From assembly GCF_013122565.1 (NCBI RefSeq), contig NZ_CP053258.1: a stretch of DNA of 64,000 bases, one strand, 5' to 3'. Positions 40,331 through 47,732 of the stretch are shown here, piece after piece. The DNA is from Escherichia coli. Its GTDB lineage: Bacteria; Pseudomonadota; Gammaproteobacteria; Enterobacterales; Enterobacteriaceae. The notes beneath the pieces were generated by a model. That model had not been told where the DNA came from. It saw only the letters and a program-made list of their open reading frames with translations, and made no database searches. Position 1 is the stretch's first letter. Every line of letters starts with the position of its first letter. A program made the position numbers and the translations under genes.

Positions 40331-41092
40331 ATGCAATTGAGCAGCAGTGAACCTTGCGTGGTGATCCTGACCGAAAAAGAGGTAGAGGTAAGCGTCAATA
40401 ACCATGCTACGTTTACCCTTCCGAAAAACTACCTGGCCGCCTTCGCGTGCAACAATAACGTCATTGAACTCTCAACGTTAAATCACGTATTAATCACCCA
40501 CATCAACCGTAACATCATCAACGATTATCTGTTGTTTTTAAATAAGAACTTAACCTGTGTAAAGCCCTGGTCGCGGCTGGCTACCCCGGTTATCGCTTGT
40601 CATAGCCGTACACCGGAAGTGTTCCGGCTAGCCGCCAACCACAGCAAGCAGCAACCCAGCAAACCCTGCGAAGCGGAGTTGACGCGCGCATTGCTTTTTA
40701 CCGTATTGTCTAACTTTCTTGAGCAATCGCGGTTTATTGCCCTACTGATGTATATCTTACGCAGCAGCGTCCGCGACAGCGTCTGCCGCATTATTCAAAG
40801 CGATATTCAGCATTACTGGAATCTGCGAATTGTCGCCAGTTCGCTATGTTTAAGCCCCAGCCTGCTCAAAAAGAAATTAAAAAACGAAAATACCAGCTAT
40901 AGCCAGATTGTCACAGAGTGTCGTATGCGTTACGCCGTACAGATGTTATTGATGGATAACAAAAATATCACTCAGGTGGCGCAATTATGTGGCTATAGCA
41001 GCACGTCGTACTTTATCTCTGTTTTTAAGGCGTTTTACGGCCTGACACCGTTGAATTATCTCGCCAAACAGCGACAAAAAGTGATGTGGTGA
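40331..41092 (+). CDS. envY: AraC-family regulator EnvY
   Basis: 253-aa ORF MQLSSSEPCVVILTEKEVEVSVNNHATF... with C-terminal AraC-type HTH (..ITQVAQLCGYSSTSYFISVFKAFYGLTP); AT-rich gene. Confidence 0.82.
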   Translation: MQLSSSEPCVVILTEKEVEVSVNNHATFTLPKNYLAAFACNNNVIELSTLNHVLITHINRNIINDYLLFLNKNLTCVKPWSRLATPVIACHSRTPEVFRLAANHSKQQPSKPCEAELTRALLFTVLSNFLEQSRFIALLMYILRSSVRDSVCRIIQSDIQHYWNLRIVASSLCLSPSLLKKKLKNENTSYSQIVTECRMRYAVQMLLMDNKNITQVAQLCGYSSTSYFISVFKAFYGLTPLNYLAKQRQKVMW

Positions 41093-41137
41093 AGGGCAAA
41101 GCGGAAACGGATAAGACGGGCATAAATGAAGAAGAAA

Positions 41138-41214
41138 TGGCGCGCCCTGCAGGATTCGAACCTGCGGCCCACGACTTAGAAGGTCGTTGCTCTATCCAAC
41201 TGAGCTAAGGGCGC
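41138..41214 (-). tRNA. argU: tRNA-Arg (anticodon UCU)
   Basis: Minus strand reads GCGCCCTTAGCTCAGTTGGATAGAGCAACGACCTTCTAAGTCGTGGGCCGCAGGTTCGAATCCTGCAGGGCGCGCCA: 7-bp acceptor stem, TCT anticodon in the CTTCTAAG loop, GGTTCGAATCC T-arm, encoded CCA. Confidence 0.92.
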
Positions 41215-41456
41215 GTTGATACCGCAATGCGGTGTAATCGCGTGAATTATACGGTCAACCCTTGCTGAGTCAATGGCTTTTGATCTGGTTGCTGAACAAG
41301 TGAACGACCGCGTCTGATTTTCTGATTTATTTCGCTATAGCGGCAAACAAATGCACACCGCTGCGCGTCTGAATCAAGAAAACCCGTATTTTCATGTATC
41401 AAAGTACAATTTACCGCCCTAACGGAAAATTGTCCGCTCCTATGAGACTGGTAACT

Positions 41457-42089
41457 ATGAAACCAACGTCGGTGATCATTATGGATACTCATCCTATCAT
41501 CAGAATGTCTATTGAAGTTCTGTTGCAAAAAAACAGTGAATTGCAGATTGTCCTGAAAACGGATGATTACCGCATAACCATCGATTATCTCCGAACCCGT
41601 CCTGTTGATTTAATCATTATGGATATAGACTTGCCCGGAACAGACGGTTTTACCTTCCTGAAAAGGATCAAACAAATCCAGAGCACAGTGAAAGTGTTAT
41701 TTTTATCATCGAAATCAGAATGCTTTTATGCTGGCAGAGCGATACAAGCTGGTGCTAACGGTTTTGTCAGTAAATGCAATGATCAGAATGATATTTTTCA
41801 TGCCGTTCAGATGATCCTCTCCGGATACACGTTTTTTCCCAGCGAAACGCTTAACTATATAAAAAGCAATAAATGTAGTACGAATAGTTCAACGGTCACT
41901 GTGCTATCTAATCGTGAAGTGACCATATTACGTTATCTAGTTAGCGGATTATCTAATAAAGAAATTGCCGATAAGTTATTACTTAGTAATAAAACAGTTA
42001 GTGCGCATAAATCTAATATTTATGGCAAGCTAGGTTTGCATTCAATTGTAGAGCTTATCGACTACGCCAAATTATACGAATTAATATAA
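41457..42089 (+). CDS. fimZ: LuxR-family response regulator FimZ (SfmZ)
   Basis: ORF track 41394..42089; start placed at MKPTSVIIMDTHPIIRMSIEVLL (210 aa); receiver domain plus C-terminal LuxR HTH. Confidence 0.88.
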   Translation: MKPTSVIIMDTHPIIRMSIEVLLQKNSELQIVLKTDDYRITIDYLRTRPVDLIIMDIDLPGTDGFTFLKRIKQIQSTVKVLFLSSKSECFYAGRAIQAGANGFVSKCNDQNDIFHAVQMILSGYTFFPSETLNYIKSNKCSTNSSTVTVLSNREVTILRYLVSGLSNKEIADKLLLSNKTVSAHKSNIYGKLGLHSIVELIDYAKLYELI

Positions 42090-42091
42090 TA

Positions 42092-42607
42092 TTAATTATA
42101 ATTGATCATAAATATCGCATCCGCTTTCGCCACACCTGGCCGAACACCGCTGGCTAACGCTCGATAATTGGCAAAAAAGTTTAGTGTGACATTGCCATTT
42201 GCATCTACTTCCTCAGTCGGGCTCGCCGCTCCCAGTGCGAGCCGGGAGCGATCGCTATTACGTAATTCGATGGCGACGGTTTGTGCCATTGCGGGATCAT
42301 CCAGAGCCAGCAGGTTGGCATCAGATGCCGGCGTTCCCGTAAATAAAATCGCGACCGAACCCGGAGGACATCCCTCCAGCCGCAGGCTAAAAGGGACGAG
42401 TGCCGTGGTATCGCCAGCGGTCAGTAGTTGTGTCGTAGGCCATCTGCCTAAATCTACCGTCTTATCATTATCCGCTGTGTTTACGGTACAAGAAAAATCA
42501 ACCACGTTACCGTGCAAATTGATATTAATCGTTCCTAAAGGGTCAGCTGCCCATCCACTGGAACTCCACAGTAACCCGCAGAAACAGCTAAAGAGTACTC
42601 TTCTCAT
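42092..42607 (-). CDS. sfmF: fimbrial minor subunit SfmF
   Basis: ORF track 42092..42802; start placed at MRRVLFSCFCGLLWSSSGWA (171 aa, signal peptide); fimbrial subunit fold. Confidence 0.85.
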   Translation of the reverse strand: MRRVLFSCFCGLLWSSSGWAADPLGTININLHGNVVDFSCTVNTADNDKTVDLGRWPTTQLLTAGDTTALVPFSLRLEGCPPGSVAILFTGTPASDANLLALDDPAMAQTVAIELRNSDRSRLALGAASPTEEVDANGNVTLNFFANYRALASGVRPGVAKADAIFMINYN

Positions 42608-42617
42608 TCTCCGTACC

Positions 42618-43625
42618 TCATTGATAATCGACGCGTAAATACCCCAGCGCGCTAAACGGCCCTTCGGTCGGTTTTTGACCGGTAATACTGATAGGCCAGG
42701 CGCGAAGTGTGACATTGGCTGCCGCAGCTGCATCCAGACGGAAAGGAATAACGCTATTGAGATCGTTAGGCGTGATCGGCGTATCGTTCTGATCGGCGAC
42801 AATAAAACCTAAATCCTGATTGTCCGACACCATCGCCTGACCAGAAACGGCACTGGCTTCCAGACGCATTGTTAAATAAGCCTGCGCAGCAACATTCGTA
42901 CATTTGACCGCAATGCTCTTGGTTTGCGGCATGACACCAGCAGGCCGATTACCCGGCCCTGCCGCACTAAATAACGATGCGCCGATATCACCAAAATCAA
43001 ATTCAACAATCTGCCCGGCATTTAATTCGCAGTTTTGCGGTACTTCAACCCGGCCACCAAAACTAATGGTATAAACAGGTGTAACCAACGGATCGTAAGG
43101 CGTTGATGTCACATACACGGTAAACATCACCTGTCTGGGGATCTCCACCATGTTAATAAAGGGCCGAATAACCTTTAAACGAAATATCAAACGAGAATCC
43201 ATCACCCCGAACGGAAGGTTTTGCGAAACGTTAGGATCTGTTCCCATACGAATATAATTTTGCGGGGGAAATTGAATATCCATCACACTATCAACCAGAC
43301 TCATCGCACCTAATAGATAATCATTTAATTGCATATATTTATAATTATCGATAGTTTCCTGAACAATAAAGTTAGTGACATAACTACGGTATGTATAATT
43401 CACCAGCGTGCCGGGTGGACAAATTGCTGAGACACCTACCCAGCCGGATTTTTCCGGTAAAACAACAATCTGCCCTGGCTGGTTATTGGTGCTATTAAAG
43501 ACATTTGAGAGATCATAGTGTTCATCTTCTGCTACGCCAGTACTATTTGCACAAACAGTAGCCCAGGATATGTTTGCCAGACACAAACATGCCATCGCCA
43601 ATAATAATCTGCAGATTATCTTCAT
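42618..43625 (-). CDS. sfmH: fimbrial adhesin-like protein SfmH
   Basis: 335-aa ORF MKIICRLLLAMACLCLANISWA...; the true start may be a downstream Met. Confidence 0.83.
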   Translation of the reverse strand: MKIICRLLLAMACLCLANISWATVCANSTGVAEDEHYDLSNVFNSTNNQPGQIVVLPEKSGWVGVSAICPPGTLVNYTYRSYVTNFIVQETIDNYKYMQLNDYLLGAMSLVDSVMDIQFPPQNYIRMGTDPNVSQNLPFGVMDSRLIFRLKVIRPFINMVEIPRQVMFTVYVTSTPYDPLVTPVYTISFGGRVEVPQNCELNAGQIVEFDFGDIGASLFSAAGPGNRPAGVMPQTKSIAVKCTNVAAQAYLTMRLEASAVSGQAMVSDNQDLGFIVADQNDTPITPNDLNSVIPFRLDAAAAANVTLRAWPISITGQKPTEGPFSALGYLRVDYQ

Positions 43626-43637
43626 TGATAATTTCCT

Positions 43638-46247
43638 TTATGAGCCAGGATGTGTGCAAACTGCCGAAATAACAGTGACGGCTTGCTGTAAGCTTTGCTT
43701 CGGCAATACATAGTGCGCAATGCAGCGTGAGTTCGCGCCGTCTCCCCACTGAACCAGTAATTCACCAGACAATGGCGCACCACTTAAATAAACTTGCCCG
43801 TCATCACCCACCATACTGGTTATTCCGGTACTGTTTTCCCGTACCAGTGATCCAAACGGCACCGGTTTTCCGCCCTGGGTAACGGTAATGAGCGCCCGCA
43901 CGCCTATGCGGGTATCAAAATTGGCACGAACCAACGCGCCTTGCGTCGGCACAACGCTGCTAATATTTTTTTCAACATCGATGGAATTCCCCATCGTATT
44001 GGTATCAAGCGCGATACGGTTATACCGATAAACCGTGGCATACGGCATCACCGCATAGCCGCGCCAGTCGGTTAAAATGCCAGTTTGATTTTCAATGCGT
44101 ACACCGCCTGCGCCAGGCGCTTTAATCAAAACATTGGTATCCCCTAAAGGCTGGCTCAGCGTTATGCCATTTTCATGCCCGACCACACCGCCAGACAGCT
44201 GCCAGTTAACGTCATGTTGATCGCGGTCGTAGTTATACCCGACTCCCAGCGTACCGTAAGCGGCCTGCCAGTTTGCCGTGGCGCTGCCCGTATACCCATT
44301 ATTCGAGGTATCACCCTGGCTTACGTGATAACTCAGGTTGTGGCCTTCCAGTAAGGTCCCACCTACACCTGCCAGCCAGCTATTTTGCCCGTTGCTGTTA
44401 CGGTTGGCGTTAAAGGAGGCATAAGCGCGGTCGAGCGCATTTTCCCGGGTGTAGCGACGTTTGGTCAAAACATTGAAAGGCACTGAAACATTAAGTCCGA
44501 CAATACGTTCGTTATCGGGGATCCCTACAGATTCATTCCACGAAAATGAGAGCGAATAACTGATGCCAACCCAGCTGCTGGTATACCCCACCTGATACCA
44601 CGTATCTGAATCCGAAGTATTCCAGTATTTTTGATGGGTACCAGAAATATAAAGCGAGCCAAAGTCATTAAGTGATTGTGAAATATTTAACTGCAAACGG
44701 TCTTTACGGCTAAAGCGTAAATTGTGGTAATTCACGATTATCGGTTCATCCCGATGCTCACCGTCATAATCGTAATCATATTCGTACCCCTCCATTCGAC
44801 GATACGCAACATCATCAAGGGTATAAAAACCTTGTGTCGAATAGCGGTAACCCATTAACTGAAAATTGGTGCCGAAGGTGTTCATCGATTTCGCATAGAG
44901 GAAGCGAATGGAATCCCCCTCATGACGACTGTCGTCGGCTAACTGGCTGCGCGCATGGGTCACATCCAGCGACACTGCGCCCCAGTTCCCGAGGTTGCGC
45001 CCCAGCCCTAATAAAAAGGCGGTGTAATTGGCAGATAATTGCGTCCCGCCGTAGGCAGTAAATTCCTGTGGTAAACCGCCGAGTGCCGTGCCCTGAAAAA
45101 AGAAAGGCGATGATTGCTGACTATTACCGCTACGAAAATCGCCCGCCGTCAGGTCAAATTTGAAACGCCCTTCGCGTTGTAAAATTGGCACTGTTGAATA
45201 CGGAATAGTGTAATTCTGCTGATTGCCATCGCGTTCGTCGATGGTGACGTCCAGATCGCCATTTGAAGATGTCGGGTGCAAATCTGTAATTTCAAAAGCG
45301 CCGGGGGAAACATAGCTTTGATAGATAATAAAACCATTTTGCCGAATCGTTAGCTGGGCCGCCGTACGGGCAATCCCACGTACTGTTGGGGCAAACCCTT
45401 GCTGGCTATCAGGATACATATTATCGGAAGAATAAAGCCGTACACCACGAAATCCAACACCATCGAAAATATCACTTCCTGTATTGCCGTCTCCCATTAC
45501 CAGTTCACTTTTCAGCGGAATAATGGCGCGCTGTACCCAGGTGCCAATATTATTCCACTGTTCTGAATGATATCCATTTCCGCGAAAATAGTTCCAGGAA
45601 CCATTGTTGCGTAAACGCCACGGGCCAATATTAATCCCGCTGAGCTCACTAAAAAAATAGCTATCGTTACCATTACCTCTGTTACCGGTGAAATTATAAT
45701 TCAGGAGTAAAGCAGGAATACCTTCATCCCACTCTTCAGGCGGAATGTAACCGTGAGCGCTACTCAACAACGCTATCTGAGGAATAGTGATGTTCAGGCG
45801 CATCGCTGCAAAATCAAAGTTAATTGTGGCATCAGGTACAGCTTTCAGTAAATTGATGCATTTATTGTTTTGCTGCTGGGCTAACTCGGGAAATGCACTG
45901 CTATTAAGGCCAATTCGTTCAAGGAGTACCTGGTTAAAACAGGGCATTAACCCACCTGATTTATCACCTGTATTTTCTGTTGTCGATTCAAATACGATAT
46001 CCTGTGAACCAATGAACTCATCATTACGCCAGAGATCCACCCGATACACGCCCGCAGGTTGATGATTACCTCTCTCAAAGCGCGATAAATCAGCAACGGA
46101 TGTGCCATTCTCTAATAAAAATGCCGGGTTGAAATAACTTTCCGCATAGCTTAAAAAGGAGGGTAAAATGGCAAGAGATGAATAACAAATTCCGGCCAGA
46201 CACCAGGTATACCTCTGCGGAATATCCGTAGTAGTGGGTATTTTCAT
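43638..46247 (-). CDS. sfmD: fimbrial outer-membrane usher SfmD
   Basis: 869-aa ORF typical of chaperone-usher ushers. Confidence 0.9.
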
Positions 46248-46277
46248 AATTAGCTCTGATATTGTCAGATGATTCGG

Positions 46278-46970
46278 TTAGTTTAAGTTCACTTCTCTGA
46301 CCGGGGTTACTGAACCATAATCATTAACGGTCTGAAATTTCAGCTTTCCCTGCACTCCTGAGGGTAAGGGAATTTGTGAATTAACTCTGGGTGCAGCCAT
46401 AGCATTCCCCAACTTTTGGCTGCCCACTTGTAAGTTAACCAGGGTGACATAAAAAGGTGATGGATTATGAACATTGATATAGTTACCGGATCGCGAAAAC
46501 TTGAGTGTGTCCGGCGCTTCTGCGGGTAATTCTTGTAATTGAATTGGACGGAGAAATAACTTCATGCGCGATAAAATCGCCAGTTGCAAAACATTCCTGC
46601 CGTTCAATGCATTTTTATCTACCGAAGGGATCGTCTTAACATTCATCCAGAACAGAGACTCACGATCTGCCGCCAGCGGTGGACCGGTGTAAATAATACG
46701 CAAAGTATTTTCGCTTTTGGGTTCACTAACAAACAGTGGAGGTGTAATGATGAATGACTTTTCTTTTACACCGCTGCTGTTTTCAATCCACGAATTGACC
46801 AGAAAGCGCTCATTGGTATGGCTATTTCTAATCCATACCGCAGTCTGTTTAGCATCAGCGGGATAAATAATACGCGTGGCACCTAATGCGATCCCTCCGG
46901 CAGCATGGGCGCTGGCCGAAATGATTAAATAAAATATAATGAGCATCAATAACTTTATTTTAGTCATCAT
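46278..46970 (-). CDS. sfmC: periplasmic fimbrial chaperone SfmC
   Basis: 230-aa [26 protein letters not shown]... (PapD-like chaperone). Confidence 0.9.
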
Positions 46971-47189
46971 AGTTAATACGCCTTGTGTATTCCTGACGGC
47001 AAAAATAAGAAATATAAAGAAATGATTGCTTTGGTTTCTTACAACACATCATTCCCTTTTCATTTAATAAAGCGGCATGATACAAAGTGAACATGATTTC
47101 GATTTACATTGCCACCATACCGCTTCAGACAACCGGTACATTACTTTGTTATAAGACGTGGTATATAATTCAAAACAACGTGGTTTTGA

Positions 47190-47732
47190 TTATTCGTATC
47201 TCATAATAAAAGTCGCGTCAGCATTTGCTTGCCCTGCTGATGCACTTGTACCGGTGCCTTTATAACGTGCAGAAAAATGAAGAACGTTGGTCCCGGGGAT
47301 CAAGTTCTGGTTGGTTGAGAAGCTATTCCCATCAGGTTTGAGAATTGCGGATGTATTATCAAGTATTTCAATACCGACACCCGTTGCTGTTGTTGTATTG
47401 GTACTGGATGCAATGGCCAATAAATTATCATTGATTGCATCAGCCTGACCAGAAAATGCAACGGCAGCATTAGCGGCAACAACAGGATCGCAGTCGTTCA
47501 ACTGTATAGTGAATGGAATTAATGCAGAGGTATTACCAACAGCATTGAAAATATCGGTACGATATTGACCGAGTGTGACAACCTGGTCTGCCGAGTCAGT
47601 ATTCACTGAACAGGCAGCATTCACCAGTTCGCCTTCAAAGTGAATTGTACCGCCATCTACAACGGCAGCATAACTACCCGTAGCGGCGAATAGTGCGGCA
47701 GCCAGCGCAGACGAAATAAATCTTAATTTCAT
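47190..47732 (-). CDS. sfmA: fimbrial major subunit SfmA
   Basis: ORF track 47190..47765; start placed at [22 protein letters not shown] (180 aa). Confidence 0.88.

Follow-up and report, generated by a model that had tools for sequence, protein, structure and literature searches.

The rare codons of Escherichia coli fimZ follow its base composition, and its proximity to argU probably reflects inherited gene order and a deletion in Escherichia

The fimZ gene of Escherichia coli, which encodes a fimbrial response regulator, lies between the sfm fimbrial genes and argU, the gene for the rare-codon tRNA-Arg(UCU). It was examined here in a window of 64,000 nucleotides (nt) from contig NZ_CP053258.1 (RefSeq assembly GCF_013122565.1), the window being the whole stretch of DNA that was analysed. 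A first-pass annotation, made from the sequence alone, had described fimZ as rich in rare AGA, AGG and ATA codons next to the tRNA that decodes them, and had suggested that its translation is sensitive to argU supply. We favour, with a probability of about 0.75, a different reading, in which the rare codons of fimZ are compositional, its linkage to argU is inherited, and both the short argU-fimZ gap and the junction of 2 base pairs (bp) between fimZ and sfmF stem from deletions in Escherichia. The AGA, AGG, ATA and CTA codons of fimZ would then be a by-product of composition, relaxed selection against rare codons being expected in a gene that is AT-rich (36.5% guanine plus cytosine, GC), accessory and weakly expressed, and the linkage to argU would be a gene order common to at least ten enterobacterial genera. 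One Escherichia deletion took fimY, the one gene through which the tRNA is known to act in Salmonella, and a second removed a GC-rich hairpin between fimZ and fimF/sfmF and brought the two stop codons to within 2 bp of each other. An argU-sensitive translation of FimZ is not supported, given the match to composition, the isolated position of the codons, the route through FimY in Salmonella and the absence of fimY from Escherichia.

The features of the region from argU to sfmF are as follows.

41138-41214, minus strand: argU, tRNA-Arg(UCU), orthologue of Salmonella fimU (ARAGORN, anticodon tct, 77 nt)
41215-41456: divergent spacer between argU and fimZ, 242 bp
41246-41273, minus strand: putative argU promoter, TTGACT-16 nt-TATAAT, 11 of 12 matches (consensus scan)
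41457-42089, plus strand: fimZ, NarL/FixJ-type response regulator of 210 amino acids (NCBIfam, Pfam, RefSeq annotation)
42092-42607, minus strand: sfmF, fimbrial minor subunit of 171 amino acids, convergent with fimZ (NCBIfam NF007402, annotation)

The rare codons of fimZ, with AGA and AGG taken together as AGR, were compared with those of the 47 other genes of the window, comprising five sfm and 42 non-sfm genes. Their positions are listed below.

41502-41504, plus strand: AGA, fimZ codon 16
41664-41666, plus strand: AGG, fimZ codon 70
41736-41738, plus strand: AGA, fimZ codon 94
41574-42086, plus strand: span of the six ATA codons of fimZ (first bases 41574, 41625, 41742, 41859, 41925 and 42084)

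The counts given by the first-pass annotation were accurate: AGR accounts for three of the eight Arg codons (2 AGA, 1 AGG), codon 16 included, and the "many" ATA codons amount to 6 of 23 Ile codons (codons 40, 57, 96, 135, 157 and 210). Whether this is a richness depends on the comparison. Against the 47 pooled genes (33/956 Arg codons AGR, 57/1020 Ile codons ATA), fimZ stands out (binomial P = 0.002 and 0.001, respectively), but against the sfm genes there is no excess (Fisher P = 0.16 and 0.12, in the same order), the AGR share of Arg codons being 3/9 in sfmF, 4/11 in sfmC and 2/4 in sfmA. Nor does the description hold against the composition of fimZ itself, for which a neutral expectation was computed, gene by gene, from the base frequencies observed at four-fold sites: fimZ has 3 AGR codons where 2.2 are predicted and 6 ATA codons where 6.1 are predicted. 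The five sfm genes fall below expectation (AGR 14 vs 21.0, ATA 14 vs 27.8), and the 42 other genes far below it (AGR 19 vs 153, ATA 43 vs 183). With the 42 non-sfm genes as reference set, the codon adaptation index is 0.538 for fimZ, 0.539 for sfmA, 0.539 for sfmC and 0.544 for sfmF, the four lowest values of the window, and this equality with its neighbours is the outcome that the first-pass annotation had itself named as refuting its proposal. The excess appears only against core genes; the counts of fimZ are those of its own composition, and sfmA, sfmC and sfmF look alike. fimZ is not enriched in rare codons; what is missing is the purifying selection that clears them from core genes.

The GC content of fimZ is the minimum of the window, and its rare-codon pattern is the same in K-12 and four other E. 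coli genomes, among which the gene differs by at most 14 nucleotides. Enterobacterial genes that are AT-rich, horizontally acquired and silenced by H-NS typically combine low GC content and low codon adaptation with an abundance of AGA, ATA and CTA codons and a patchy presence among strains. On the measures tested, fimZ is indistinguishable from this class. Its three AGR codons stand apart from one another, none of them in tandem and a single AGA falling within the first 25 codons, and at the natural level of FimZ expression they would be expected to impose little dependence on argU. The adjacent tRNA does decode part of the rare set, since argU reads AGA (and AGG), but not ATA, which is decoded by tRNA-Ile2 (ileX/ileY) (PMC2408971); ARAGORN finds no tRNA gene of the ileX/ileY type within the 64-kb window.

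Early AGR codons are a common trait of the cluster. AGA or AGG occurs within the first 16 codons in five of the six sfm/fimZ genes (fimZ, sfmF, sfmH, sfmD and sfmA; 41457-47732) and in one of the 42 genes elsewhere in the window (fepB), and in the sfm structural genes these codons sit in the basic start of the signal peptide. One of them forms a tandem pair:

42599-42604, minus strand: tandem AGA-AGA, sfmF codons 2-3 (ATG AGA AGA)

This is a more classical argU-sensitive arrangement than any codon of fimZ. As a conserved feature the pair was rejected: it is specific to E. coli, with CGG CGT in Salmonella and no Arg in E. albertii.

The parallel that had been drawn with Salmonella stands for the locus and fails for the gene. 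The order folD-sfmACDHF-fimZ-tRNA-Arg, with orthologous proteins, is that of a Salmonella-type fim cluster (sfmACDHF-fimZ against fimAICDHF-fimZ); in both, the same tRNA-Arg(UCU) lies at the cluster end on the strand opposite fimZ, and codons 16 and 94 of fimZ are AGA. The orthology of sfm to Salmonella fim, the tRNA included, and the sfm/argU order were published in 2013 (PMC3604780). The E. coli cluster in the window is incomplete, lacking fimI, fimY, stm0551 and fimW. According to reviews of the Salmonella work, fimU mutants are non-fimbriate (PMC6527747, PMC11316696), the deficiency affects FimY only (PMC6527747), and a fimU mutant regains both FimY and fimbriae once the first three rare Arg codons of fimY are swapped (PMC11316696). 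S. enterica fimY has AGG7, AGA9 and AGA14 plus two further AGR codons, its fimZ has AGA16, AGA94 and AGA97, and its fimW has two AGA. Since recoding of fimY alone suffices for rescue although fimZ carries three AGA codons, Salmonella FimZ is made in adequate quantity without fimU, and the precedent argues against FimZ as the tRNA-sensitive step. The sensitive gene of the Salmonella system (Swenson 1994; Tinker and Clegg 2001, as reviewed in PMC6527747 and PMC11316696) is thus fimY, whereas Escherichia has neither fimY nor stm0551 nor fimW. As for the features that mark a fimU-type system, the window holds no regulator of the FimY kind with a cluster of AGR codons in its first ~15 codons, and the rare-codon content of fimZ does not go beyond that of the neighbouring genes.

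Gene order was compared across 80 fimZ loci, one genome per species, together with one locus of S. enterica subsp. enterica. In 58 of the 80 species loci a tRNA-Arg(tct) gene is located upstream of fimZ and in the opposite orientation, in genera that include Salmonella, Citrobacter, Enterobacter, Lelliottia, Kosakonia, Trabulsiella, Yokenella, Pluralibacter, Leclercia and Pseudocitrobacter. The gap between tRNA and fimZ is 1.7-6.4 kb (median 2.5 kb) in 57 of these species, 256 bp in E. albertii and 242 bp in E. coli, measured from the argU 5' end to the fimZ ATG of the divergent gene, which agrees with the ~240 bp first noted. In the other species the intervening DNA encodes FimY- and FimW-like proteins, and 75 loci contain a FimY-like gene. 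A tblastn search of the 64-kb window detected no remnant of FimY or FimW (E <= 1e-3 for fimY). The argU-fimZ spacer was considered as a place where such remnants might persist and was rejected, only the 72 bp on its tRNA side (41236-41307, beside argU) matching Salmonella; the ~150 bp on the fimZ side have no detectable homologue even in E. albertii (L003 6254-6509), save for the last 14 nt. With no trace of fimY or fimW and only 72 bp of Salmonella homology, the close spacing is the scar of a fimY-stm0551-fimW deletion in Escherichia and not a designed pairing.

The abundance of AGR codons in fimZ is independent of this adjacency. The mean AGR load is 3.09 with the tRNA adjacent and 2.94 without it (P = 0.45), and the idea that tRNA adjacency raises the load was discarded. 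The Arg-rich N-terminal motif of FimY contains 3-4 AGR codons in Salmonella, Pluralibacter and Pseudocitrobacter and none in Enterobacter and most Citrobacter, where tRNA-Arg(UCU) is still adjacent, so the linkage is kept where no rare-codon cluster exists. Within E. coli, argU is present in essentially all of 5426 genomes, the argU-fimZ-sfmF block in 4156, and ~1126 genomes keep argU without fimZ.

Conservation of the individual AGR codons was examined in the same orthologues. Codon 16 is AGR in 75 of 81; codon 70 is AGR in 66 of 79 (CGG/CGA in Salmonella, AAA in E. albertii), and codon 94 in only 7 of 80, Salmonella among them. The AGR/CGN minority fractions of 0.07 at codon 16 and 0.16 at codon 70 compare with 0.01-0.28 at Arg columns dominated by CGN, and the AGA:AGG ratios at both codons resemble those of other A/G-ending two-fold codons of the AT-rich fimZ. 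Synonymous diversity over codons 1-25 is about half that of the rest of the gene, and ordinary early codons are conserved as well (TCC5 94%, ATT8 99%, CCT13 91%, GTC15 95%); the relative synonymous diversity of codon 16 (0.50) lies within the mean of the surrounding block (0.48-0.63). Selection for AGR at codons 16 and 70 was therefore rejected, the CGN columns being equally stable and codon 16 lying in an equally conserved block.

The block itself, from the Shine-Dalgarno sequence at about -20 to about +80 (~codon 22-25; window 41437-41530), raises another explanation of AGA16, namely that the fimZ initiation region from -20 to codon 22 is constrained as nucleotides, plausibly as the target of a small RNA, with the rarity of the codon irrelevant. 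Among 78 non-Escherichia species the commonest base has a share of 0.92-0.96 between the ATG and +60, compared with ~0.70 downstream and ~0.5 upstream of -20, and codons 1-20, non-rare ones included, show about half the gene-average synonymous diversity. Two small RNAs, InvS in Salmonella and sRNA103 in enterohaemorrhagic E. coli, are reported to affect FimZ. A structured RNA is not indicated, since the consensus fold reaches only -6 kcal/mol with a double change in 1 of 15 pairs and no meaningful covariation, and no Rfam family was found at the initiation region, the tRNA being the only match above threshold. Reduced synonymous change near start codons is also common in bacterial genes, and the E. 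coli sequence differs from this block at ~10 positions, its Shine-Dalgarno sequence being GAGA where the family consensus is GAGG. We regard this explanation as possible but doubtful.

At the other end of fimZ the gap of 2 bp between convergent stop codons reported by the first-pass annotation was confirmed, and it has no terminator:

42087-42094: tail-to-tail junction, with the fimZ TAA at 42087-42089, the dinucleotide TA, and the sfmF stop codon at 42092-42094

The arrangement is identical in five E. coli genomes, K-12 included. A consensus scan detected no terminator on either strand at the junction; three terminator-like matches in 40900-43000 were set aside as all lie off the junction, and shuffled sequences gave 2.0 +/- 1.5. 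Other species differ markedly. Outside Escherichia the fimZ and fimF stop codons are mostly 36-93 bp apart (mode near 50; 45 bp with a hairpin in Salmonella), and in 73 of 79 other species the fimZ stop is followed by a GC-rich hairpin with a folding energy of -15 kcal/mol or lower. For the 70 nt past the stop, the median energy is -22.6 kcal/mol (median z -3.9) across these 79 non-Escherichia loci, compared with -8 kcal/mol in both E. coli and E. albertii (z -0.3 and -1.3), which share the 2-bp gap. The position of the hairpin is conserved and its sequence varies by genus, as in the comparison loci L004 (7634-7678), L086 (5134-5178), L052, L053, L039 and L025. Escherichia has lost this hairpin, and fimZ and sfmF converge without a terminator. 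To judge from position and fold, the hairpin is probably a bidirectional terminator; as only 19 of the 79 carry a T-rich tail in a crude count, the terminator role itself is one that we infer.

It had been stated that transcription from the two sides "must collide". The convergence without a terminator stands, but the statement is too strong, as a collision needs both promoters to be active together. In a weaker form it gives a further explanation of the locus that is compatible with the one we prefer, in which read-through from sfmACDHF runs antisense to fimZ and read-through from fimZ antisense to sfmF, so that interference or antisense pairing couples the two units. The 2-bp gap with no terminator-like site on either strand, the weak E. 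coli fold where 73 of 79 other species have a strong hairpin, and the invariance among the five E. coli genomes are consistent with such coupling. The sfm operon is, however, usually considered cryptic in laboratory culture; Rho and H-NS normally truncate antisense read-through that is not translated, and the scarcity of T-rich tails weakens the reading of the hairpins as terminators. A peak for sigma-S RNA polymerase from genomic systematic evolution of ligands by exponential enrichment (SELEX) lies inside sfmF, between sfmH and fimZ, close to the junction in K-12 (coordinate 562966, about window position 42190; PMC5493296) and is a further point in its favour; taken on its own, the peak suggests an intragenic promoter-like site in the AT-rich fimZ/sfmF junction region. 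The loss of the hairpin may also be neutral decay of a degenerating cluster, seeing that sfmA has a 5' deletion, that sfm is absent from the B2 group (PMC3604780), and that sfmD is frameshifted in E. coli strain GF3-3. The terminator-less junction and the fimY-fimW deletion fit this picture of sfm, and a regulatory coupling through the junction seems unlikely to us.

A broader claim combines these elements. The two Escherichia deletions would have rewired the locus such that FimZ output is set by antisense read-through from sfm together with H-NS/Hha silencing and not by tRNA supply; the first deletion would also have taken the ancestral fimZ promoter region, and the silencing would touch the argU promoter. 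If this were true, fimZ and sfm would form a terminator-less convergent feedback pair, seen in no other genus sampled, but we consider it rather improbable.

The argU-dependent proposal, stated in full, is that FimZ synthesis is gated by argU supply through AGA/AGG codons, especially AGA16, and that the tRNA is kept adjacent for that purpose. Several observations weigh for it and thereby against the compositional explanation. All 58 of 58 loci with an adjacent tRNA have AGR at codon 16, as do 12 of 16 without (Fisher P = 0.0016, with no phylogenetic correction), and none of the six orthologues with CGN at codon 16 (L026, L027, L028, L033, L034 and L075) has an upstream tRNA-Arg(UCU), the upstream flank covering 7 kb in four of them and 4.2-4.3 kb in L034 and L075. 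The CGN sequences belong to a few related clusters of the Cedecea, Buttiauxella and Dryocola type, and the association probably reflects one or two events. The effect of rare Arg codons is reportedly strongest within the first 25 codons (Chen and Inouye), and codon 16 is inside this range. Garcia-Contreras et al. 2008 described AGA, AGG, six ATA, CCC and CTA codons above the genome average in E. coli fimZ, found that Hha binds argU and fimZ in vivo with argU repressed 5.6-fold, and proposed that the translation of fimbrial genes is held back by the availability of rare tRNAs; when Hha is overproduced in E. coli, argU is repressed and fimbriation declines (PMC2408971). That work differs from ours in that it used genome-wide codon usage only and did not cover composition, neighbours, orthologues or the fimZ/sfmF junction. 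No direct test of E. coli FimZ translation was found, and a modest dependence on argU may exist.

A related precedent is leuX and FimB in uropathogenic E. coli (Ritter et al. 1997, cited in PMC2408971 and PMC11316696), where a minor tRNA limits the translation of a fimbrial regulator rich in its cognate rare codon; there the tRNA, the codon (UUG) and the fimbrial system are different, and the dependence was shown experimentally. For fimZ, the AGR codons (three of eight Arg codons, one at codon 16), the conserved linkage of tRNA and fim genes across many genera and the non-fimbriate Salmonella fimU mutants could likewise be cited. Against this, the counts equal the compositional expectation, the codons are single, AGA16 is no more conserved than the codons around it, ATA is not an argU codon, and the Salmonella effect passes through FimY, which Escherichia has lost. 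Moreover, argU is near-universal and essential in K-12 (PMC11480407), while roughly one E. coli genome in four lacks fimZ. We judge gating of FimZ by argU to be very unlikely. The reverse effect, in which H-NS/Hha silencing nucleated on the AT-rich fimZ/sfm DNA (GC 0.35-0.42 over 41300-42199, adjoining the putative argU promoter) would reach that promoter ~200 bp away and alter argU expression, could draw on the Hha binding and repression mentioned above, although array-based binding is of low resolution, and on the failure of plasmid argU under its natural promoter to complement a chromosomal deletion (PMC11480407), but it is entirely inferential and highly improbable, the ~1126 genomes that have argU without fimZ indicating that the context is not needed.

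The window is E. coli chromosomal DNA and most closely matches strain GF3-3 (99.8%). The gene order in the window is nfrA, ybcH, envY, tRNA-Arg, fimZ, sfmF, sfmH, sfmD, sfmC, sfmA and folD. argU is the sole tRNA in the 64 kb by ARAGORN (Rfam tRNA RF00005, 72 bits), and its locus is annotated as tRNA-Arg in matching E. coli genomes, K-12 included. The putative argU promoter lies 32-59 bp 5' of the mature tRNA start, and a consensus scan found no strong sigma-70-like site on the plus strand of the argU-fimZ spacer. On the strand antisense to argU (41140-41214, plus strand), Rfam gives a match to "Plastid-ycf2 5UTR RNA" of 34.7 bits, below the gathering score of 65.7, which is almost certainly an artefact of tRNA-like sequence. 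FimZ scores 447.1 bits against NCBIfam equivalog NF007403 (cut-off 271) over residues 1-210 of 210, an identical protein matches Pfam PF00072 (receiver) and PF00196 (GerE/LuxR helix-turn-helix), D10, D56 and K106 are invariant in an alignment of 13 sequences, and identity to Salmonella FimZ is 72%. The 210-residue start at 41457 is backed by RefSeq and by 79 of 80 species loci, the exception being Pseudocitrobacter vendiensis L073, with 209 residues by alignment; an alternative in-frame ATG at 41394 (extension 41394-41456) would give a protein of 231 residues, a form present in the database as P0002 with 11 members. SfmF scores 331 bits against NF007402 (cut-off 168). On the far side of argU, the envY stop codon is only 45 bp away (41093-41137) and no prophage occupies the argU 3' end, a site held by the DLP12-type integrase gene intD in K-12 and in strain MS1718; envY, argU and fimZ are contiguous in ~2423 of the 5426 E. 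coli genomes.

The rare-codon content of fimZ and the Hha-argU link were already known in 2008 (PMC2408971), as was the sfm/argU order in 2013 (PMC3604780). The fimY-stm0551-fimW deletion and the loss of the hairpin after fimZ appear to be new, minor and restricted to Escherichia. Were FimZ truly gated by argU, the supply of a minor tRNA would be tied to adhesin regulation in E. coli, and argU is both an Hha-repressed tRNA and a target of prophage integration. The more general message is one of caution, in that the yardstick for rare codons in an AT-rich accessory gene should be the local composition and the genes beside it and not the genome average. Both deletions contribute in a small way to the view of sfm as a cluster in decay, and fimZ/sfmF offers a natural terminator-less convergent pair that could be used for the study of transcriptional interference.

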